Source: Clostridia bacterium
Lineage (GTDB): Bacteria > Bacillota > Clostridia > Oscillospirales > CAG-272
Reading direction: 5' to 3'
Assembly: GCA_017387685.1 (NCBI GenBank)
Contig: JAFOEU010000058.1
Location: 67,936 to 131,935, forward strand
Length of the DNA: 64,000 nt
Shown: positions 11,992 to 43,043 of the stretch, piece by piece
How positions within the stretch are numbered: position 1 is the first letter of the stretch
How the letters are laid out: each line of letters starts with the position of its first letter
Notes under the pieces: model-generated
Told to the model about the DNA's origin: nothing
The model's input: the letters and a program-made list of their open reading frames with translations, nothing else
The model's database searches: none
Translations under genes and position numbers: made by a program

Positions 11992-14106
11992 ATGGCAGCA
12001 AAAAAGACAGAAACGAAAACGAAAAAAAGTGCCTCCGCCGAGCCTGAAAAAAAGGCAAAGGCAAAGGCTAAAGGCGCGGCTGCGGAAACAAAAAAGGTAC
12101 CGGTTTCCGACGATCCCGCTGCTTATAACAATGACAGTATCGTCCTCTTAAAGGGCGCGGACAGAGTAAGAAAGCGTCCGAGCGTTATCTTCGGCTCGGA
12201 CAATATTGAGGGATGCAAGCATTGCTTTTTTGAAATTCTTGCTAACGCGATCGACGAGTCGAACGCGGGTTACGGACGCGAGATCAGAGTCTATGCATAC
12301 AACGATCACTCAATGAAGGTCGAGGATTTCGGCCGAGGCGTTCCTCTGGGATACAACGAAAAAGAGGGAAGATATAACTGGGAGCTCGTCTTCTGCGAGC
12401 TTTTCGCGGGCGGTAAAATGGACAACAATACCGACGAGGCAGTCTATAAATCCTCTCTCGGAACCAACGGCCTCGGTGCTTGCGCGACGCAGTATGCCTC
12501 CTCGTTTATGACGGTCGATTCCTTTGACGGCAAGTACGTGAGCTCGATCAGATTTGAAAAGGGTGAGCCCGTGACCGAGCTTGAACGCTATGAGCTCTCG
12601 CCCGCCGACAGACGCACGGGCACGGTTATTCATTGGCGTCCTGACCTCGAGGTCTTCACCGATATCAACATTCCCACCGACTATTTTAAGGAGGTCCTCC
12701 ACCGTCAGGCGGCAATAAACTACGGCGTGAAATTCTTGCTCGAAATCGAAGGTGATGACGGCAAGGTCGAAAATTTTGAATATTTCTATTCCGCAGAGGA
12801 CGGTCTTCGCGAGTATCTTTGCGAGCTCGCGGAGAATAAATTCCTGACCGAGCCGGTCTTCTGGCAGTCGAAAACACGCGGTAAGGACCGCGGTGACAGA
12901 CAGGAATATCCGCTCGAAGCCGACTACGTTTTCTGCTTCACGCAGGCACTCGGCGTTCAGGAATACTACCACAACTCGAGCTATCTTGAGCACGGAGGCT
13001 CGCCCGACAAGGCGGTCCGCGCGGCTTTCGTCAGCGCGATCGACAAGTATCTGCGAGACTCGGGCAAGTACAGCAAAAACGAAACAAAGATAAATTATTC
13101 GGATATCGCCGACAGCCTTGTGCTCGTTATCTCGAGCCATTCGACGGTTGCTTCTTATGAAAACCAGACGAAAAAGGCAATCACCAACTCCTTTATTCAG
13201 GAGTCGATGACCGACGTGCTGAAGGAAAATCTTGCTACCTATTTTACAGAAAAGCCCGCCGAGGCAGAGAAGATCGCGGCTCAGGTTCTTATCAACAAGC
13301 GAAGCCGTGAGAGCTCACTCAAGAACCGCCTTGATATCAAAAAGAAGCTCTCCGCCGCGATGGATGTTTCCTACCGCGTTGAGAAATTCGTCGGCTGCCG
13401 CTCGAAGGATCCCTCGATCCGCGAGCTGTATATAGTTGAGGGAGACTCCGCGCTGACCTCCTGTAAGCTCGCGCGTGAGGCGGAATTTCAGGCAATCATA
13501 CCCGTCCGCGGTAAGACTCTCAACTGTATGAAGAGCGACTACAAGCAGATCTTCGCAAGCGAAATTATTGTCGACCTTCTCCGTGTTATCGGCTGCGGAG
13601 TCGAGCTTGACTCGAAGGCGAAAAAGCACAGCGATATGAGCGAGTTTGATCTCTCTGCGCTGCGTTGGTCGAAGATCATTATTTGTACCGATGCCGACGA
13701 GGACGGCTTCCAGATCAGAACTTTGCTTTTGACGATGTTCTACCGTCTGCTTCCTACCCTCATCGAGGAGGGCAAGATCTTTATTGCCGAAACGCCCCTC
13801 TATGAGATCACAACTAAGGATGATACCTTCTTCGCCTACGACGAAAAGGAAAAGACCGAGATACTCAAAAAGATCGGTGACAAAAAATACACTCTTCAGC
13901 GTTCAAAGGGACTTGGTGAAAACGAGGCTGATATGATGTCTCGCACCACTATGAAGCCCGCAACGCGCAGACTTATTGCCGTCAAGCCCGCAGACGCGGC
14001 GGCAACAGAGGAGATCTTCGACGTTCTCCTTGGCAACAACCTTGCGGGAAGAAAGACATTTATCGCGGAACACGCGGGAGAATATATGAAAGACGTTGAC
14101 GTCTGA
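11992..14106 (+). CDS. Type IIA DNA topoisomerase subunit B homologue (GyrB/ParE-like) with a Lys/Ala-rich N-terminal tail
   Basis: GHKL-like EILANAIDES and GTNGLGACATQ. TOPRIM ELYIVEGDSALTSCK and IIICTDADEDGFQIRTLLLTMFYR. C-terminal QRSKGLGEN. The first ~45 aa are K/A/E-rich. Confidence 0.85.
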   Translation: MAAKKTETKTKKSASAEPEKKAKAKAKGAAAETKKVPVSDDPAAYNNDSIVLLKGADRVRKRPSVIFGSDNIEGCKHCFFEILANAIDESNAGYGREIRVYAYNDHSMKVEDFGRGVPLGYNEKEGRYNWELVFCELFAGGKMDNNTDEAVYKSSLGTNGLGACATQYASSFMTVDSFDGKYVSSIRFEKGEPVTELERYELSPADRRTGTVIHWRPDLEVFTDINIPTDYFKEVLHRQAAINYGVKFLLEIEGDDGKVENFEYFYSAEDGLREYLCELAENKFLTEPVFWQSKTRGKDRGDRQEYPLEADYVFCFTQALGVQEYYHNSSYLEHGGSPDKAVRAAFVSAIDKYLRDSGKYSKNETKINYSDIADSLVLVISSHSTVASYENQTKKAITNSFIQESMTDVLKENLATYFTEKPAEAEKIAAQVLINKRSRESSLKNRLDIKKKLSAAMDVSYRVEKFVGCRSKDPSIRELYIVEGDSALTSCKLAREAEFQAIIPVRGKTLNCMKSDYKQIFASEIIVDLLRVIGCGVELDSKAKKHSDMSEFDLSALRWSKIIICTDADEDGFQIRTLLLTMFYRLLPTLIEEGKIFIAETPLYEITTKDDTFFAYDEKEKTEILKKIGDKKYTLQRSKGLGENEADMMSRTTMKPATRRLIAVKPADAAATEEIFDVLLGNNLAGRKTFIAEHAGEYMKDVDV

Positions 14107-31503: not shown

Positions 31504-31884
31504 CTAATCGGCGATACGCCATTTCATTGATCTTGCGATAACGTAAGAGCTATCCTCCAACCGCTCGGAGGAGGTGTATATCTCACTCGACCAGACTATA
31601 TATCCCGGCTCTATGTTAACGCAAGCCGCATACAGATAGTCGTTTTTGCTGTTTATCTGCCACCGGAGAAGATTTTCAAATTCGATCTCAACTATGGCAT
31701 CAAAGATACTCGGCGCAAATATTTTAAGCGTCAGCTTGGTTTCGTCGGGATGAAAGTGAAGGCAGTTATCTATCCTCTTGATCCCGCTGTGCTTATATTG
31801 AACGTCAATGATACATCCGTCGTGCAGAGCCCGTGTTTCTTCAAGAAAATCATTTATATCTTTTTCCGATTTTATTTCCTTCAT
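31504..31884 (-). CDS. Hypothetical protein (126 aa), co-transcribed with rtcB
   Basis: ORF with a GAGGAT RBS 13 nt after the rtcB stop. No signal peptide or recognisable motif. AT-richer by eye than its neighbours. Confidence 0.5.
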   Translation of the reverse strand: MKEIKSEKDINDFLEETRALHDGCIIDVQYKHSGIKRIDNCLHFHPDETKLTLKIFAPSIFDAIVEIEFENLLRWQINSKNDYLYAACVNIEPGYIVWSSEIYTSSERLEDSSYVIARSMKWRIAD

Positions 31885-31897
31885 CGTTGATCCTCAT

Positions 31898-33106
31898 TTA
31901 TTCCGTTGCCTTGAAATGGTAGATCGGCTTGATGCGGCAGACGATCTCTGCTGTGGGAGTGATGTTTTCAACGATCTCGTCCATGCTCTTGTATGCCATA
32001 GGCGACTCGTCGAGGGTGTCGGGAACTACGCAGGTCGAGTAGATGCCCGACATCTGCTCCTCGTATTCCGCCATAGTCAGCCGCTCAAACGCCGCAGAGC
32101 GCGACATAAGTCTGCCCGCTCCGTGGGGCGCGGAGAAATTCCAATCCTCGTTGCCGCGACCGATGCAGATGAGCGAGCCGTCGCGCATATTGATGGGAAT
32201 GAGGAGCTTTTCGCCCTCCTTCGCCGAGACCGCGCCCTTGCGGAGGATCATTTCGTCAACGTCGACGTAGTTATGAACCGTCTCGAAGGCTTCAAGCGCG
32301 GTGAGTCCGACTCTTTCAAGCAATATCTCAGCCATTCTTTCGCGGTTGCGCTTTGCGAACTTCTGACAGATGTCAACGTCGTGGATATAATCCTCCATAA
32401 ACCGTCCGTAAAGATAGCAGAGATCGGCGGGGAGCGTGGGCTCCTTTGCCTCCCATTCCTTTGCCATAGCCTTAAGAACAGCCTGAATCTCGCTTCTGCG
32501 CCCCGCCTCCTTGTAGGTGCGGATGATCTCCTCGCGGCGGTTGAAGTATTCCTCCTTTCCGAGGTTGAGATCGACGGCGATGCCCTGATAATATTCCGCT
32601 ACTTGAGTGCCGAGATTGCGGCTGCCCGAGTGGATTACGAGGTACTTGTTGCCCTCATCGTCCGAATCAATTTCGATGAAATGATTACCGCCGCCGAGCG
32701 TGCCGAGGCTTCGCTCAAGACGCTTTGAGTCTCGGAGATATCTGTAACAGCGGAGCGCGGTGAGATCGAAACGTTCGTCGCGCCCCTCCCAGACATCTCT
32801 GCCCGAGGGGATGAAATGCGCGGCTTCGTCGAACCTTTCAAGGTCGATATCAACCTTGCCGAGCGCGACGGTGTACATTCCGCAACCGATATCAACGCCC
32901 ACCATCGCGGGAACTATCTTGTCGGTAATTGTCATTGTCGTACCGATGGTACATCCCTTGCCCGCGTGAACGTCGGGCATTATTCTTATCTTCGAGGACG
33001 AAAACGCCTCGGTATCGCAAACCGTCTTTATCTGCTCGCGCGCACCGTCCTCAAGGGTGGACGCGAAGCACTTTGCGGTGTTATAAATTCCTATAATTTC
33101 TATCAT
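31898..33106 (-). CDS. rtcB: RNA 3'-phosphate/2',3'-cyclic-phosphate ligase RtcB
   Basis: MPDVHAGKGCTIG, GGGNHFIE, HSGSRNLG and SAPHGAGR (nucleophilic His) signatures. The ATG at 33106 is preceded by AAGGAG. Confidence 0.9.
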   Translation of the reverse strand: MIEIIGIYNTAKCFASTLEDGAREQIKTVCDTEAFSSSKIRIMPDVHAGKGCTIGTTMTITDKIVPAMVGVDIGCGMYTVALGKVDIDLERFDEAAHFIPSGRDVWEGRDERFDLTALRCYRYLRDSKRLERSLGTLGGGNHFIEIDSDDEGNKYLVIHSGSRNLGTQVAEYYQGIAVDLNLGKEEYFNRREEIIRTYKEAGRRSEIQAVLKAMAKEWEAKEPTLPADLCYLYGRFMEDYIHDVDICQKFAKRNRERMAEILLERVGLTALEAFETVHNYVDVDEMILRKGAVSAKEGEKLLIPINMRDGSLICIGRGNEDWNFSAPHGAGRLMSRSAAFERLTMAEYEEQMSGIYSTCVVPDTLDESPMAYKSMDEIVENITPTAEIVCRIKPIYHFKATE

Positions 33107-33117
33107 ATTTTCTCCTT

Positions 33118-33621
33118 TCATCCCTCAAAGGGAGTCTCTAAAACGTAAGGCAGATGTGTGTCGATTTCAAGCTGAATGACGGGGGAGGGAAAATCTTCGT
33201 GAAGCAGGGCCTGGTCGGGTATCGGGAGCACCATAAAAGGAAAATCCGGATCGGGCGAGTAGCTGTGCTCCCAACAAGTTCTTTTCAGAATAACCCCGGT
33301 ATCAAGCAGAGTTTCCTCAACCATATCGGGCGATTCCACTATTCTGCCGCAGACGTGGTACCAACCGTTGTACCAGATCGTGCCCTCTTCTTCAAGCAGC
33401 CCTGTGACGTTATAGACCTCGGGGGGCTTGCGGGGATCGATGCCGAGGGAGCGTAAAAACTCCGTCACACGGTCGGATGCCTCCATAATGACTTTATCGA
33501 AATTTTGACATCCGCAGCAGCTGCACTGCTCACCTATTGACTTGATATCCGTGCGCTCATAAAACGCCCGCGTGCGCTCGACGTCGATGTCGAGCACGAA
33601 GCTTGAAAATCTGAAGATCAT
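33118..33621 (-). CDS. Hypothetical Cys-rich protein (167 aa)
   Basis: MIFRFSSFVLDIDVERTRAFY...EQCSCCGCQNF. Its start overlaps the upstream stop (ATGA). No family recognised. Confidence 0.5.
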   Translation of the reverse strand: MIFRFSSFVLDIDVERTRAFYERTDIKSIGEQCSCCGCQNFDKVIMEASDRVTEFLRSLGIDPRKPPEVYNVTGLLEEEGTIWYNGWYHVCGRIVESPDMVEETLLDTGVILKRTCWEHSYSPDPDFPFMVLPIPDQALLHEDFPSPVIQLEIDTHLPYVLETPFEG

Positions 33622-34046
33622 TTTGATTTTTCCTCCAATCGGTAGTTTGAAAGCAATTTGCGGTCGCAGTAGAAAGGACCGCACCAGGTACCTTCGTGAG
33701 TCCATATATAAGTCCACGAAAAATCCCGCGCAACGACGTAAATTTCCGTGCATTCCGTAAGATCCTCTGCGCAGATGTTTTTGCGGTCGGAAAGAGAAGG
33801 CAAATACTTGCCGAAGCGTTCAAAATATATCGCGCTTTCTTTTTCCTCGGGCGTGAGACTGTCGAAAGCCAGCGCGGCGTCGACACCCATAAGAAAACAT
33901 TCCTTGGGAAGATAACCCCACGTGAAAAGATGCCAGATATACTGTTCTGCCCTGATCATAGACTTATCACAAGGATTGTCATTTAGGGGTGCAGCAAAAT
34001 GCTTGAGCCATTGGTTTTTGAATTTTTCGTACGTCATGGTATCCAT
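33618..34046 (-). CDS. Hypothetical protein, DUF4275-like (tentative)
   Basis: IWHLFTWGYL, AALAFD and VVARDFSWTYIWTHEGTWCGPFY resemble my recollection of DUF4275. The start is set at ATG 34046 because the GTG at 34085 overlaps the predicted -10 box. Confidence 0.5.
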   Translation of the reverse strand: MDTMTYEKFKNQWLKHFAAPLNDNPCDKSMIRAEQYIWHLFTWGYLPKECFLMGVDAALAFDSLTPEEKESAIYFERFGKYLPSLSDRKNICAEDLTECTEIYVVARDFSWTYIWTHEGTWCGPFYCDRKLLSNYRLEEKSK

Positions 34047-34075
34047 TCCGTTCTTTCGTTTTATCTTACACTCAT

Positions 34076-34104
34076 ATTTTACCACTCAAAAAGACTTTTT
34101 TCAC
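34076..34104 (-). promoter_or_regulatory. Putative extended -10 promoter (GTGAAA-17-TGgTAAAAT) for the rtcB cassette
   Basis: Reverse strand: -10 at 34076-34081 preceded by TGG, and a weak -35 at 34099-34104. It lies immediately after the terminator that ends the WYL pair. Confidence 0.4.
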
Positions 34105-34144
34105 GGAAAAAAAGCTGCGAACTCGTTAAAGTTCGCAGCTTTTT
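34105..34144. terminator. Strong terminator after the WYL pair
   Basis: 11-bp stem AGCTGCGAACT/AGTTCGCAGCT (34113-34123 and 34130-34140) flanked by an A7 run and a T4 run. On the reverse strand it is followed by TTTTTTT. Confidence 0.75.
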
Positions 34145-34152
34145 AGTGATTT

Positions 34153-35058
34153 TTATCTTAAATTCAGAAGCTTTTGAGCCAAAAGCTTCTTTTTTATCAG
34201 CTCGACGAATGAGTCGGGTGCTTCGGCTTTTACTCGCGCGCCGAAGGAGAGAGTTCGGATGACGATCTCGGACTCGTCCTTGTGGTCGAATTTGACGTGA
34301 AGCAGATATTCGTTTTTGCCAACCCGCTCTGCGCGCTTTTCAAAGTGCGCAAAGTGGAGCATACACCGCTCGAGGGCGTTTCGCTCGTCTTTGATTCGGA
34401 GCGTGACGGTGTCGTATCGCTCCTCGCGGGGGATGTGCTTGAAGGTCTCGCCGCAATATTTTACCGATCTGATCTTCGAGAGATTGATCGTGTGCAGATA
34501 CTTGCATCCGTCTGTGATGAGGCGGAATTTGTCATCCTTTTCGGAGTACTCGAGCCGCAGGGGCATGACCTTAGCGTACATTTCCTTGCCGCTTCTGTTG
34601 GTGAGATTTACCTTGATCGGAGTACCTGCGCGGATAGCGGAGAGGATGATGCGAAAGCGTTCGATATATCCCTCGTCGGAGAAATCGTCGCCGTCGCAGT
34701 ATTTATCGTAGACGTAATAATCGTCGGGAGTGAAGAGAGGATCGACGTCATCGAGTCCGTTAAAGGAAACGTCAAAGAGCTTGACTCGCGGATCGAGCGA
34801 TACCGCATTAAGCCATCTTTTTTGCAGATTTGTCAGCGGAACACTCGGCTTGTGCTTCAAAACCGTGCTCATATCGGGACGGAGAAGCTGCCATTTACCG
34901 CTTTTAAGTGCGGGGAGGATGGTTGTAACGCTTTCGCCGAAGGCGTGCTCCGAGACGATCTTCTGAAGCTTGCGCTCGTCGCGCTCGCCGTCGATGATCC
35001 TTGAAATTATTTCCGCGACCGTGTTGTAGTAAGCGGAATAAAGCTCGCTGAATATCAT
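34153..35058 (-). CDS. WYL-domain protein (second of a tandem pair)
   Basis: 301 aa. The WYL-like core is TPIKVNLTNRSGKEMYAKVMPLRLEYSEKDDKFRLI, followed by a WCX-like C-terminal domain. It overlaps the upstream WYL gene by 4 nt. Confidence 0.65.
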   Translation of the reverse strand: MIFSELYSAYYNTVAEIISRIIDGERDERKLQKIVSEHAFGESVTTILPALKSGKWQLLRPDMSTVLKHKPSVPLTNLQKRWLNAVSLDPRVKLFDVSFNGLDDVDPLFTPDDYYVYDKYCDGDDFSDEGYIERFRIILSAIRAGTPIKVNLTNRSGKEMYAKVMPLRLEYSEKDDKFRLITDGCKYLHTINLSKIRSVKYCGETFKHIPREERYDTVTLRIKDERNALERCMLHFAHFEKRAERVGKNEYLLHVKFDHKDESEIVIRTLSFGARVKAEAPDSFVELIKKKLLAQKLLNLR

Positions 35059-36311
35059 TGACCGCTCACCTCGATTCCGTACATTCTGTACATTTCTTCA
35101 AGATCGCGCCTGAATTTGTTTTCGTCGGTTCGGTTTGAAAAATCCAATTGCACGATGCGGCAGATGAAGGTTCGGATCCAGGGGATTATCTCGCTCGTTT
35201 CGTAAACGTCGGCGGTGAATCGGTAGGTGGAATCGTCGATCTTTTCAACCGTGCCACCCCGCTTTTCGCGGTATAGACGCTTGATTATGTAATCCTCGTT
35301 CGGCTCGACCTTGACCGTAAAGGTCACGCGCTCGAGCGGCTCTTTGCCGCGTTTGCCTCGGTTTACCACAACGCCCCACATATTGCTCTGCTTCAGGTCG
35401 AGCATAGCGCGAAGCTCGTCAAAGCGCGGCGTGACCTCCTCAAGCTTGACGGCGGAAAGATAGTCGATCCTGAGGGAGCGGAAATTATTGAAGTCGGGCT
35501 GATACGCGATCAGATGTTGCTTGCCATTCTGCGTGCTGATGAAGATGCGCAGCGGGATTATGCGGTTTCGCCTCGGCTCGTCTGAGCGGCGGCTGTGATT
35601 CGTTACCGTGATAACTCGCTTCTGCCTCATAGCGGTAAAGAGCGCGGCAAGGACTTCGCTGTCCATCGCGCCCGTGATGTAGTGGTGCTTGAAGCCAAAG
35701 GCGTTTTTGTGCGGGCGCGTTCTGTCGAGCAGAAATGAGCCGATAACGCCGCAAGGTGCCGCCTCTGAATAGAAATCAAGAAGATCACAGTAGTCCGAAA
35801 GATCAAAGTCTTCCGCGCGGCGGTAGAGCATACGCTTGCCCGATTTTTCGGAGATTATAATGCCTTCATCGCAATATTCCTTAAGCTTCTTGCGCAGAGT
35901 CGATTCGTCGAACATCAACGGTGAGTCGAACTCGGAGAGATATTCGCGGTCGATTATTTGCATAATCTCGGGAATTGAAAGCGCGATCTCCGGGGAGTGA
36001 AGAATATCGAAGAGGATGAAATGGAGGGTAATATCGCCGTCGGTGAAGCTTTTTGATTTCCAAGCCTTATAGAAGGGATTGTGGCGTGATGATCGGCTGT
36101 CGATCGAGATGAAGATATTCTTGCCCTCGGGCGTGCGGACGAAGCTCATATGATCGCCGAGAATGCTTTCCATACGGCGGCGCTCGTCGTCATACGATCG
36201 CGCGCTTTTTTGGTTGTACCCGTCGCGGCTCTTGAAGCCGTAAACGTAAAACTCGCGCATATAAGCGCGTATTCGCTCAAAATTCTTAATGAGCTCGCTG
36301 TAGGACGACAT
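35055..36311 (-). CDS. WYL-domain transcriptional regulator (wHTH-WYL-WCX architecture, first of a tandem pair)
   Basis: 418 aa. N-terminal FYVYGFKSRDGYNQKSARSYDDERRRMESILG. wHTH-like SIPEIMQIID...LRKKLKEYCDEGIIISEKSGKRMLY. WYL-like RIIPLRIFISTQNGKQHLIAYQ. Confidence 0.7.
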   Translation of the reverse strand: MSSYSELIKNFERIRAYMREFYVYGFKSRDGYNQKSARSYDDERRRMESILGDHMSFVRTPEGKNIFISIDSRSSRHNPFYKAWKSKSFTDGDITLHFILFDILHSPEIALSIPEIMQIIDREYLSEFDSPLMFDESTLRKKLKEYCDEGIIISEKSGKRMLYRRAEDFDLSDYCDLLDFYSEAAPCGVIGSFLLDRTRPHKNAFGFKHHYITGAMDSEVLAALFTAMRQKRVITVTNHSRRSDEPRRNRIIPLRIFISTQNGKQHLIAYQPDFNNFRSLRIDYLSAVKLEEVTPRFDELRAMLDLKQSNMWGVVVNRGKRGKEPLERVTFTVKVEPNEDYIIKRLYREKRGGTVEKIDDSTYRFTADVYETSEIIPWIRTFICRIVQLDFSNRTDENKFRRDLEEMYRMYGIEVSGQ

Positions 36312-36348: not shown

Positions 36349-36879
36349 TTAATCGATAAATTTAACGATCTCGTCCATATCCTTGCGCTTTTTGGTGCGG
36401 AGTTTATCGCCTTCCTTCGGATAGCCGATAGTGATGACGAGGCGGACGGGTGCATCGAGCGAGCAGATCTTGCGGATCTCCGCGTCGTCGAGCCAACCGA
36501 GAATGCAGCTTCCGAGCCCCTGCGCGGCTGCTTCCGCAGTGATGTAGGCGGAGAGGATGCCGATGTCGATCGAGCGGTAGTTGTTGCCCTTGACCTTTGC
36601 GCCGAGTGCGGCGGATGCGACGTAGGGCTTCTCGGAAATTACGATCAGCACGGGAGCATCGGTTGCAAATTTGTTCATACCCATACCCTGAACGGCTTTT
36701 GCGACCGCTTTAGCCGACTCGCCGCGGCAGACCGTCATAAGATACGGCTGACCGTTGCAAGCGGATGGGGAGAGACGTGCGGATTCAAGTATTGCTTGAA
36801 GTTTTTCCTCTTCAACCGCCCTCGCCGCATCATAACTGCGGCAGGATTGGCGGGTGTTTGCTATTTCTGTGAAGTTCAT
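36349..36879 (-). CDS. Nitroreductase family protein
   Basis: RQSCRSY, PSACNGQP and a typical length of about 175 aa. Confidence 0.85.
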   Translation of the reverse strand: MNFTEIANTRQSCRSYDAARAVEEEKLQAILESARLSPSACNGQPYLMTVCRGESAKAVAKAVQGMGMNKFATDAPVLIVISEKPYVASAALGAKVKGNNYRSIDIGILSAYITAEAAAQGLGSCILGWLDDAEIRKICSLDAPVRLVITIGYPKEGDKLRTKKRKDMDEIVKFID

Positions 36880-36890
36880 AGTTTTCTCCT

Positions 36891-37370
36891 TTATACCGTC
36901 AGATCAACCAGTTCAAATTTCAGTGCTTTACGAAGTTCGTCAAGCGTGATCTCGACCTGATATCCTATCTTTCCCGCGCTGAAAAGGATGGTTTCAAAAT
37001 TCGCGGCAGTTGCGTCCGTGAAGGTGGGAAACTGCTTTTTCATACCGATCGGCGAGCATCCGCCGTGGATGTAGCCCGTCAGGGGGAGCAGTTCCTTTTG
37101 CTTTATCATCACGATATTTTTCTCGCCCGCGGCGCGAGCGGCTTTTTTGAGATCAAGCTCACGCTCTACGGGGATCATGAAAACATAGTAATTCTTCGAT
37201 GCGCCGACCGTCACGAGAGTTTTGAAAACGTGATTAGGGTCCTGATTCAATACCGTCGCGATCTCGATGCCGCTGATCGCATCGGTGTCAACGTAAAGAT
37301 GCTTTTCGTACTTGACCTTTTTCGAGTCAAGCAGACGCATCACGTTTGTTTTTTCGTCTGTTTTTTTCAT
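36891..37370 (-). CDS. ybaK: Cys-tRNA(Pro)/Cys-tRNA(Cys) deacylase YbaK
   Basis: TNVMRLLD, VFKTLV, GYIHGGCSPIG. Confidence 0.85.
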   Translation of the reverse strand: MKKTDEKTNVMRLLDSKKVKYEKHLYVDTDAISGIEIATVLNQDPNHVFKTLVTVGASKNYYVFMIPVERELDLKKAARAAGEKNIVMIKQKELLPLTGYIHGGCSPIGMKKQFPTFTDATAANFETILFSAGKIGYQVEITLDELRKALKFELVDLTV

Positions 37371-37654
37371 TTCAGATCAAATTCACCGAGCTTTGACTCT
37401 GCGATATAATCATTTCTGAATGCGCGGAGCTTTGCCATGTGGGGCTGACCGATGTGCACCTGCTGGTGCTCCTTCGACTCCCACGCCTCAATGAGCAAAA
37501 GTTCATTGGGATTCTTATCCGAATAATAGTAATCGTAGCGGATGCAGCCGTCCTCTGCAAGCACAGCCGCGAGTACGCCCTCGGATTTCATTCTCTCGAC
37601 AAACGCCTCGCGCTTGCCCTCGTGGCAGATGAAACTAACGTAAATAGTGTACAT
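37367..37654 (-). CDS. Antibiotic-biosynthesis-monooxygenase (ABM) family small protein
   Basis: 95 aa with a ferredoxin-like ABM pattern (C.RYD...LLIEAWESKEHQQVH). Confidence 0.75.
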   Translation of the reverse strand: MYTIYVSFICHEGKREAFVERMKSEGVLAAVLAEDGCIRYDYYYSDKNPNELLLIEAWESKEHQQVHIGQPHMAKLRAFRNDYIAESKLGEFDLK

Positions 37655-42414: not shown

Positions 42415-42717
42415 ATGGCAACTAAAACCGCAAACGTATCTGTACGCGTTCAGCCTGAGATCAAAGCGCAGGCTGAGGAAATACTTGCACAGCTTGGCAT
42501 TCCCGTGTCGGTACTGATAGATTCGCTTTACAGACAAATAATTATGACTAACAGAATCCCGTATTCTTTCAGCCTTCCCACGATACAAACCCGAGATACA
42601 ATGACCGAAGAGCAATTCAATGCAATGATGGCAAAGGGGCTTGATGAAGCAAAATCAGGTCGAGGCGTTAGTGTTGACGATGCTTTTGAAAAGATAAATC
42701 AAAGTATTGGCAAATGA
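42415..42717 (+). CDS. Type II antitoxin, RelB/DinJ family
   Basis: The N-terminal ribbon-helix-helix NVSVRVQPEIKAQAEEILAQLGIPVSVLIDSLYRQI is typical of DinJ/RelB. It overlaps the toxin gene by 4 nt. Confidence 0.8.
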   Translation: MATKTANVSVRVQPEIKAQAEEILAQLGIPVSVLIDSLYRQIIMTNRIPYSFSLPTIQTRDTMTEEQFNAMMAKGLDEAKSGRGVSVDDAFEKINQSIGK

Positions 42718-43043
42718 CTTATCAAGTTAATTTGACCGACAGTGCTTTTGTTCAGCTTAAAGAGGCTATAATATATATATCCAATGTCCTTTTTGAGCCG
42801 GAAGCCGCAAATCAATGGTCTGATAGAATTAAAAAATCTATTTCTTCCCTTAACAATATGCCTCGCAGATTTCCTTTGGTTGATGAAGAGCCGTGGCGTA
42901 CGGAAGGAATACACAAAATGACTGTTGACAATTTCATCGTTTACTATTGGGTTAACGATGATACTGAGACGGTATGGATTACTGCTGTTGTTTACGGCAG
43001 AAGAGATCAGCTTGCCGCGCTTCGCGATATGCCAAAAGAATAA
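42714..43043 (+). CDS. Type II toxin, RelE/ParE family
   Basis: 109 aa. The IVYYWVNDDTETVWITAVVYGRRD C-terminal pattern is typical of ParE/RelE toxins. Confidence 0.8.
   Translation: MTYQVNLTDSAFVQLKEAIIYISNVLFEPEAANQWSDRIKKSISSLNNMPRRFPLVDEEPWRTEGIHKMTVDNFIVYYWVNDDTETVWITAVVYGRRDQLAALRDMPKE

Follow-up and report, generated by a model that had tools for sequence, protein, structure and literature searches.

In the present study, a 64,000-nt stretch of DNA from a Clostridia bacterium (assembly GCA_017387685.1, contig JAFOEU010000058.1, positions 67,936 to 131,935; here called the window) was analysed, in which two adjacent genes for WYL-domain proteins, WYL1 and WYL2, precede a four-gene cassette containing the RNA ligase gene rtcB. 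The explanation that we favour, with moderate confidence, is that an RtcB-centred RNA-repair module has here its own dedicated transcription factor, which senses nucleic acids and, like PafBC, is built from two subunits, WYL1 and WYL2. This explanation starts from observations: the domain identities of the two proteins, their pairing and fusion, their conserved linkage to the module, an invariant 20-nt element, the geometry of the cassette promoter, and insulation by a terminator. The arrangement recurs in hundreds of species, far beyond what chance would produce. Given the conserved linkage and the invariant promoter-proximal element lying between the two parts, a functional tie of the WYL pair to the rtcB cassette is strongly supported.

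WYL1 relatives were found in at least 517 candidate stretches of a species-level genome collection (one genome per species), with record titles naming Oscillospiraceae, Acutalibacteraceae, Ruminococcus, Christensenellaceae and unclassified Clostridia, and animal and human guts as sources. The genome survey comprised 80 loci recovered with the WYL1 alignment, 53 of which had enough downstream sequence to look for RtcB. It was encoded downstream on the same strand in 45 of the 53, and these proteins were 71–95% identical to the RtcB of the window. The eight loci without RtcB still carried an SPFH or a vWA-type gene, except for one (L070) that had only an AAA ATPase and an unknown 573-aa protein. 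Flanking genes varied among the loci and the sequence upstream of WYL1 was not conserved, so the conserved block is WYL1-WYL2-module and not a larger syntenic region. A metagenome search seeded by the 20-nt element alone gave 120 loci. WYL2 ended directly upstream of the element in 79 of the 93 loci with at least 1 kb of upstream sequence; a downstream sequence of 3.5 kb or more was available for 44 loci, of which 31 had RtcB there and 40 had one or more of RtcB, SPFH and the vWA-type protein. A link between the WYL pair and the cassette had been put forward in an earlier sequence-only reading of this DNA, and the neighbourhood comparison, together with the invariance of the element between them, bears it out.

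The element itself, TTCGCAGCTTTTTTTCCGTG, lies on the minus strand at 34102–34121 (about −52 to −33 relative to the cassette promoter). The survey gave 70 exact copies from 68 distinct loci, each on the strand of the operon and next to the end of WYL2; identity was complete, 70 of 70, wherever the sequence extended that far. Its named segments are TTCGCAGC, a T7 run and CCGTG; it is non-palindromic, and the CCGTG-A part overlaps the −35 position. Across loci with the identical 20-mer, the identity of WYL1 falls to 66% and that of WYL2 to about 51%. In all loci exactly 20 nt of variable sequence separate the element from TGGTAAAAT or a close variant of it. The element occurs once in the window, where no match with three or fewer mismatches is expected by chance. 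The promoter that it adjoins is of the sigma-A type (34104–34076, minus strand) and consists of a −35-like GTGAAA, a 17-nt spacer and an extended −10 TGgTAAAAT. Immediately upstream, a 15-pair hairpin followed by a T-run (34109–34144, minus strand) ends the WYL operon and is predicted to act as a terminator insulating the cassette promoter downstream. Both the hairpin and the extended −10 promoter had been claimed from the letters alone, and both were found at the locus. On this evidence the 20-nt element is a candidate operator of the WYL pair.

The first 8–9 nt of the element are at the same time the right arm of the terminator hairpin. The hairpin was rejected as the cause of the invariance, since eight loci (L009, L016, L022, L030, L034, L055, L069 and L073) lack the left arm and have another terminator in front of the unchanged 20-mer. 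Where a gene for an AAA ATPase of about 390 aa has been inserted (L022, L068 and L165), the whole element and promoter are duplicated into two copies that flank this gene (L022:11669-11688 and 12922-12941; L068:12181-12200 and 13439-13458), so that each cargo gene has its own copy of the regulated promoter. Autoregulation through the element was considered and discarded, since the sequence preceding WYL1 contains no copy and shows no conservation. A phage origin was likewise discarded, the 20-mer being present in only one of 2.9 million viral contigs. One locus (L169:894-3574) has the element and promoter with no WYL genes in the 0.9 kb upstream and no RtcB downstream; the promoter is followed there by a weak SUKH-1/SMI1_KNR4-like protein (E 4e-4), a 207-aa unknown protein and a 355-aa protein whose N-terminus resembles that of the 167-aa cassette protein described below.

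WYL1 (35055–36311, 418 aa) and WYL2 (34153–35058, 301 aa) are both encoded on the minus strand, and the ATG of WYL2 overlaps the stop codon of WYL1 by 4 nt. WYL2 was the next gene after WYL1 in 77 of 77 genome loci with room for it. The offset at the junction was 0–20 nt in 80 of 82 locus sequences, a set that includes the window's own contigs and in which both alignment ends could be placed. In a search of 1.84 billion cluster representatives (E<=1e-30), the WYL1 family comprised 383 clusters, nearly all of about 400–420 aa and aligned from end to end. Nine of the best 150 clusters (P0370, P0382, P0392, P0401, P0415, P0428, P0429, P0462 and P0491) were 685–855 aa long, several of them sharing less than 50% identity, and the six sequences inspected were single chains of the form WYL1-linker-WYL2. 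WYL2 of the window matched over its full length to residues 383–685 of P0370 (48% identity, E 1e-93) and to residues 457–790 of P0392 (34% identity, E 2e-54). The obligate adjacency, the 4-nt overlap and the natural fusions are strong, if indirect, evidence from sequence for a WYL1:WYL2 complex, i.e. a PafBC-like pair. The only heterodimeric WYL proteins reported to date are PafBC and its orthologues (Schilling et al. 2025, PMC11804915). It was also found that in two loci, L053:541-615 (minus strand, 64.5 bits) and L061:1534-1617 (minus strand, 50.6 bits), the Rfam Gut-1 RNA motif adjoins the WYL genes on the strand opposite to them, the L061 match sitting inside an unusually long gap between WYL1 and WYL2.

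Both upstream proteins had been read as WYL-type, and profiles and fold matches agree that both are WYL-WCX proteins. WYL1 consists of a conserved N-terminal region (residues 1–104), a winged helix-turn-helix (wHTH, about 105–165), a WYL domain (219–289, modelled as a barrel over 218–295) and a WCX domain (about 327–410). The Pfam WYL profile PF13280 was matched above its cut-off (E 2.2e-8) and WCX weakly (E 0.04); among 20 family members, WYL was detected in 20, WCX in 16 and a PaaX-like wHTH in 12. The AlphaFold2 (AF2) model of WYL1 has a low overall pLDDT of 56; the wHTH, WYL and WCX domains reach about 70–89 (the wHTH 70–86), and residues 1–95 are of low confidence. When this model was compared with the Protein Data Bank (PDB) by Foldseek, the best 32 matches were all WYL-domain proteins, and nearly all of these transcription factors: DriD, PafBC, BrxR and CapW were matched at E 4e-9 to 4e-4, followed by LmrR/PadR-type wHTH proteins. 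A Cas13d-type WYL accessory protein (6oaw) was also among the WYL fold matches (E ~2e-4). The wHTH that had been proposed for the first protein is thus recovered both in the model and in the PaaX-like matches of the homologues.

In WYL2, a conserved N-terminal region precedes a divergent WYL-like beta-barrel (about 148–201) and a WCX domain (about 215–297). The protein itself gave no Pfam match; the PADLOC WYL profile was matched at E 6e-7, and the Pfam WCX profile PF25583 was detected in 20 of 23 homologues (best E 5e-8). The WYL domain is therefore present but divergent, and the WCX-like C-termini claimed for both proteins are borne out by the homologues of each. The AF2 model of WYL2 (overall pLDDT 65) is confident from residue 125 onwards and of low confidence in the N-terminal 120 aa, and both models contain a confident alpha/beta C-terminal domain. 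The best 30 PDB matches of WYL2 in Foldseek were only WYL transcription factors, PafBC (9fnd, chains Y/X) coming first, followed by DriD, BrxR and CapW (E 2e-7 to 1e-5). No HTH was detected by Pfam in 23 members of the WYL2 family. The description of the two proteins as PafBC-like regulators holds for their pairing and fusions and is inexact at one point, as an HTH is not detectable in the second subunit. An hhalign comparison of the WYL1 and WYL2 families placed the WYL-WCX segments in register with an E of 0.05 and a probability of 1%; the alignments were shallow, and structure was therefore used to compare the two proteins. PHROGs and NCBIfam searches gave no match for the WYL proteins or for the three small proteins of the cassette.

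The cassette genes are tightly packed on the minus strand, as are all six ORFs of the locus, which were found at the coordinates given by the sequence-only reading, together with the 4-nt overlap. The leader of the window is only about 38 nt long from the promoter to the first gene (33618–34037, 139 aa), which had been called DUF4275-like and matches Pfam PF14101 (E 4.8e-19). It is followed by a Cys-rich protein directly upstream of rtcB (33118–33621, 167 aa, CxCxxC...H(xC) motif), by the RtcB 3'-phosphate/5'-OH RNA ligase (31898–33106, 402 aa, a short bacterial form) and by a 126-aa protein (31504–31884), and an intrinsic terminator with a 13-bp stem (31485–31457, minus strand) closes the cassette. 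RtcB matches its Pfam profile at E 1.4e-58, and in an alignment with Pyrococcus horikoshii RtcB the motif residues for metal and GMP binding correspond in both proteins, i.e. the D and H of DVHAGKG, the D and C of GVDIGCG, the NH of GGGNHF, the H of IHSGSR and the H of SAPHGAGR, in agreement with the claim that the enzyme is intact. It scored below the NCBIfam cut-offs for the E. coli-type and PrfH-type models (152.8 vs 407 bits), which places it in a separate clade. Profiles of all four expected families (WYL, WCX, RtcB and DUF4275) were thereby found at the locus, WCX being weak in WYL1 and WYL2 being recognised through PADLOC and its homologues.

No RtcA, archease, RtcR or TROVE family was found by Pfam annotation within 10 kb on either side, no homolog of SPFH, DUF2828 or RlaP was found anywhere in the 64 kb, and the window contained no tRNA or Rfam match. 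The absence of rtcA, archease, RtcR, Rsr and Y RNA from the locus had been noted before and agrees with these searches. The broader claim, that the system has none of the known Rtc partners, does not hold for its relatives, which carry an SPFH/Band-7 or a DUF2828-DUF7788 gene, tRNA-like RNAs and sometimes RlaP. In most of them a non-coding leader of 0.45–1.8 kb lies between the promoter and rtcB, and then comes an SPFH or a DUF2828+DUF7788 gene. The genome loci contained 26 copies of the SPFH/Band-7 protein (about 367 aa) and 23 copies of the DUF2828+DUF7788 protein (about 488 aa), which has a vWA-type DxSxS motif and found no match in the PDB by sequence. The RlaP nucleotidyltransferase followed rtcB in seven genome loci and several metagenome loci.

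The leaders hold tRNA-like sequences with odd ARAGORN anticodons, scoring 20–33 bits against the Rfam tRNA model. In the SPFH class, found in about 17 loci (alignment A5; e.g. L013:10811-11030) and not in the window, the leader, about 450 nt long, is a structured RNA that has been conserved: it has a T-arm of canonical tRNA type (GCGGGUUCGAAUCCCGC) and hairpins inserted variably, compensatory changes occur in seven of its pairs, and the Rfam tRNA model gives it only 20 bits. This RNA probably represents the 'tRNA-like molecule' of SPFH-RtcB systems. In the vWA-type class, one to three tRNA-like genes precede the DUF2828-DUF7788 gene (L011:12607-12978, L022:13250-13414, L034:13254-13852 and others), with anticodons Ile-AAU, Arg-UCG, Ser-CGA, Phe-AAA and Tyr-AUA and scores of 30–33 bits, at or just above the Rfam threshold. 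These genes resemble the tRNA-like modules of Y RNAs beside Ro-type proteins. In one locus (L126:3523-6082) a mobile-element-like block with a 425-aa ORF, integrase-like by eye, lies directly after the promoter in place of the repair genes, and the tRNA-like leader may serve as an integration site.

Compared with these relatives, the cassette of the window is a derived, reduced module, in which DUF4275 and the Zn-motif protein stand instead of leader RNA and scaffold, and the 126-aa gene is an addition after rtcB. Two close relatives (L007 and L008), whose WYL1 is 84–86% identical to that of the window and which have the same flanks, still possess the leader and SPFH, and a third (L006) shares the form of the window; the replacement is therefore recent. 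DUF4275 was found in this position by tblastn in only four of 80 related loci (L006, L007, L061 and L073). The 126-aa protein occurred among the related loci only in the closest relative, L006, and had no match in Pfam, NCBIfam, PADLOC or PHROGs. Both genes are lineage-specific additions. The 167-aa protein belongs to a small family, with about 106 clusters and no Pfam match; residues C33, C35, C38 and H89 are invariant, and the protein is probably Zn-binding. A member lies upstream of RtcB in L006 and also in the unrelated loci L069 and L073. A role as dedicated RtcB cofactor was rejected, since three homologues (40–63% identity) stand alone in unrelated contexts; the protein may be an alternative RtcB adaptor or mere cargo. 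Repeated, non-significant matches of the family to the Zn segment of tRNA-guanine transglycosylase (E 0.04–1.6) offer a lead towards an RNA-related Zn protein.

A retron-type reverse transcriptase was found a few genes after rtcB in three loci (L024:19540-20571, L060:5470-6525 and L074; cluster c13). It is RT_Ec107-like according to PADLOC (E 3e-128) and hints at defence-island-like surroundings in some genomes. When PADLOC was applied to the neighbour genes it scored the retron reverse transcriptase alone, and none of SPFH, the vWA-type protein, RlaP, c4 and c27. In the window, the genes that immediately precede WYL1 (36349–37654, minus strand) encode a nitroreductase, a protein with a YbaK/tRNA_edit domain and an ABM monooxygenase. 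The nitroreductase stop codon is 37 nt from the start of WYL1, and these genes are kept in the closest relatives only; given this short gap and limited conservation, WYL1 may be co-transcribed with them in the window. A RelB/ParE-type toxin-antitoxin pair was identified by Pfam, and its ORFs confirmed, about 6 kb from the WYL genes (42415–43043, plus strand).

In the proposed mechanism, the WYL pair would be expressed constitutively from its own, non-conserved promoter, and its transcript would stop at the hairpin. We infer that WYL1:WYL2 would bind the asymmetric element at −52 to −33 through the wHTH of WYL1, the only one predicted with confidence. WYL2 would be an HTH-less partner acting by means of its WCX domain, possibly with contacts to RNA polymerase. 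A damage signal at the WYL domains would then switch the cassette promoter on, the signal being most likely broken RNA (tRNA halves, 2',3'-cyclic-phosphate ends) and alternatively single-stranded DNA (ssDNA), and RtcB would reseal the cleaved RNAs. An activating role, as supposed here in place of de-repression, fits the position of the element, its asymmetry and the precedent of PafBC and DriD. PafBC is a heterodimeric WYL activator in which only the PafB HTH reads DNA (PMC11804915), and a second precedent is RtcR, which regulates rtcBA by sensing a ligand and reacts to damaged tRNA (PMC7790460).

Several points weigh against this mechanism. No HTH was detected in WYL2, whose WYL domain has diverged too far to be recognised by Pfam. 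The pLDDT values of 56 and 65 and Foldseek TM-scores of 0.2–0.4 are low, so that similarity is established at the level of domains only. In the promoter, the extended −10 is near-consensus and the −35 box matches at 4/6 positions; an activator may not be needed, and a repressor would be equally viable. The WYL transcription factors with a solved ligand complex all bind ssDNA, not RNA (PMC11804915; PDB titles). Finally, 14 of the 93 metagenomic element loci have no adjacent WYL pair. Of the exceptions to the metagenomic linkage, a few (L111, L116 and L123) look like chance or unrelated matches, some carry a mobile element inserted after the promoter (L126), and about six (L179, L200, L194, L098, L183 and L154) are genuine repair modules behind housekeeping genes, with no WYL pair beside them. 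The last group shows that the element belongs to the module promoter; in these loci either the pair must act in trans or another protein reads the element.

As to the sign of control, it is quite conceivable, at somewhat below even probability, that the pair is a repressor like CapW or BrxR which sits on the element, over the −35/UP region, and is released by its ligand; nothing but this sign would differ. TGGTAAAAT with its 17-nt spacer and GTGAAA is a good sigma-A promoter by itself, the terminator that always insulates the module just upstream would suit tight silencing, and CapW and BrxR, both among the fold matches, are repressors. The element, however, is non-palindromic, and its location at −52 to −33, which begins upstream of the −35 and extends across it, is the classic one for activators. 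Moreover, the heterodimer precedent, PafBC, is an activator, and so are the best fold matches (DriD and PafBC).

A second question is the nature of the signal. It is rather unlikely, although far from negligible, that the same architecture responds to ssDNA or DNA damage, RNA repair being induced within a DNA-damage or phage response as with PafBC, DriD or CapW. The structurally characterised ligands among the fold matches are all ssDNA (DriD 8tp8/7tzv, CapW 9c5g and PafBC), the retron reverse transcriptase just after rtcB in three loci hints at a defence context, and LexA-like S24 genes lie nearby in two loci. The regulated genes, in contrast, are all RNA-related (RtcB, RlaP and tRNA-like RNAs), and RtcR, the only regulator of an rtcB operon to have been characterised, reacts to tRNA fragments (PMC7790460). 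WYL has the Sm fold, and an RNA-binding example (6oaw) is among the fold matches. Literature from the Aravind laboratory also predicts cyclic-phosphate RNA as a WYL ligand (PMC9503650).

That the WYL proteins are not regulators at all, and serve as RNA-binding accessory subunits like the WYL1 protein of Cas13d systems, is improbable. The 20-mer would then be read by another factor, or would be nothing but terminator, UP element and −35. The Sm-like WYL fold and the match to the Cas13d-type 6oaw are in keeping with such a role, as are the unusually high, enzyme-partner-like conservation of WYL1 (66–72% identity across families) and the element loci lacking adjacent WYL genes. WYL1, however, has a well-predicted wHTH with PaaX/LmrR-type matches, and the best 25–30 fold matches are all DNA-binding WYL transcription factors. 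In addition, a separate, terminator-insulated WYL unit immediately upstream of the element is the usual layout of a regulator and its target. Incidental synteny of the WYL genes and rtcB with no functional link, for which the separating terminator might speak, is highly improbable, as the linkage persists in at least 45 species-level genomes while the flanks change and is recovered by a search with the 20-mer only.

Returning to the favoured explanation of a dedicated two-subunit transcription factor, a more far-reaching form of it can be offered only tentatively, and we think it doubtful. The pair would be a second, non-actinobacterial heterodimeric WYL family and the first with a damaged-RNA ligand (tRNA halves, 2',3'-cyclic phosphate/5'-OH ends), switching on RtcB repair through the 20-nt operator, and the promoter would be a plug-in site for cargo. 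The cargo placed under its control would be SPFH, the vWA-type protein, tRNA-like RNAs, the AAA ATPase, or DUF4275 with the Zn-motif protein. Possible roles of the swapped cargoes are those of adaptors or of immunity-like proteins directed against RNase toxins.

The sequence-only reading had regarded the combination as undescribed, and in this respect it has to be corrected. Cyclic-phosphate RNAs have been suggested to signal to CARF/WYL transcription factors, some of which would regulate RNA-repair pathways (Iyer, Burroughs and Aravind 2022, PMC9503650; also PMC7824862), so that WYL regulation of RNA repair had already been proposed computationally. The former paper cites Burroughs and Aravind 2016 for WYL transcription factors. 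No experimental link of WYL regulators to RtcB was found in the literature searched. The components of the locus are known, and the WYL-RtcB association has probably been noted before. What appears to be new or unexploited is the obligate two-subunit, sometimes fused regulator outside Actinobacteria, the invariant 20-nt element of fixed geometry, and the swapping of cargo.

RtcB repair operons are widespread, and only one type of regulator, RtcR, has been studied. The present family of loci, mostly from gut Clostridia, offers a second, paired and sometimes fused WYL factor. As its candidate operator is identical across species, electrophoretic mobility shift assays, footprinting and in vitro transcription would be straightforward. 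The family also provides a natural test of whether WYL proteins sense RNA damage or ssDNA, and the variable cargo behind one invariant promoter may reveal new RtcB cofactors or anti-ribotoxin functions in the gut microbiome.

Of the known systems, PafBC shares the most features with the WYL pair. In both, two adjacent paralogous WYL-WCX genes are present, which are fused into a single chain in some lineages (Arthrobacter, PDB 6sj9, in the case of PafBC). PafBC, whose complex with RNA polymerase is PDB 9fnd, is the best structural match for WYL2, its promoter element is likewise asymmetric and non-palindromic, and in both cases the level of the factor is presumably constitutive, with control exerted by the ligand. 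No sequence relationship was detected, as family profiles searched against the PDB found neither PafBC nor any other WYL protein by sequence at E<=1 and identity at the fold level is 11–17%; the similarity is therefore one of fold and architecture, not orthology. The HTH of PafC contacts sigma region 4, whereas WYL2 has no detectable HTH, and WYL1 carries about 100 additional conserved residues at its N-terminus. PafBC promoters have a −26 motif and no −35 box, unlike the element at −52 to −33 beside a −35-like box and an extended −10. PafBC controls a DNA-repair regulon in mycobacteria and other actinobacteria, in contrast to RNA repair in Bacillota with no Pup-proteasome context.

The RtcR-RtcBA system of E. 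coli and Salmonella resembles the present locus in having a ligand-sensing regulator beside rtcB, RtcB as the effector and a logic of damage-induced repair, which is proposed here. RtcR, however, is a CARF-AAA+ sigma-54 enhancer-binding sensor acting at a sigma-54 promoter with RtcA present, and at the present locus its place is taken by the WYL pair, without RtcA.

Among the RtcB systems of the scaffold type, Salmonella rsr-yrlBA-rtcBA is a comparator. Burroughs and Aravind are said to have described, in 2016, RtcB partners that include SPFH/Band-7 with a tRNA-like RNA, Ro/TROVE-like scaffolds with Y RNAs, and RlaP. The relatives of the window show the corresponding order of tRNA-like RNA(s), SPFH or DUF2828-DUF7788, and RtcB, with or without RlaP; the window differs in lacking the scaffold gene, the RNA and RlaP, and the regulator is a WYL pair, not RtcR. 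An SPFH gene is also embedded in the rtc locus of Pseudomonas aeruginosa (PMC13086221), a locus that likewise comprises RlaP, and the naming of RlaP has been confirmed by a later paper (PMC12776372).

The wHTH-WYL-WCX order of WYL1 is the same as that of CapW, BrxR and DriD, which are among its top fold matches and are encoded immediately upstream of the module that they control. CapW, BrxR and DriD regulate CBASS, BREX and the Caulobacter damage response, respectively. These regulators are homodimers on palindromic sites, whereas the locus described here combines two different subunits with a non-palindromic element.

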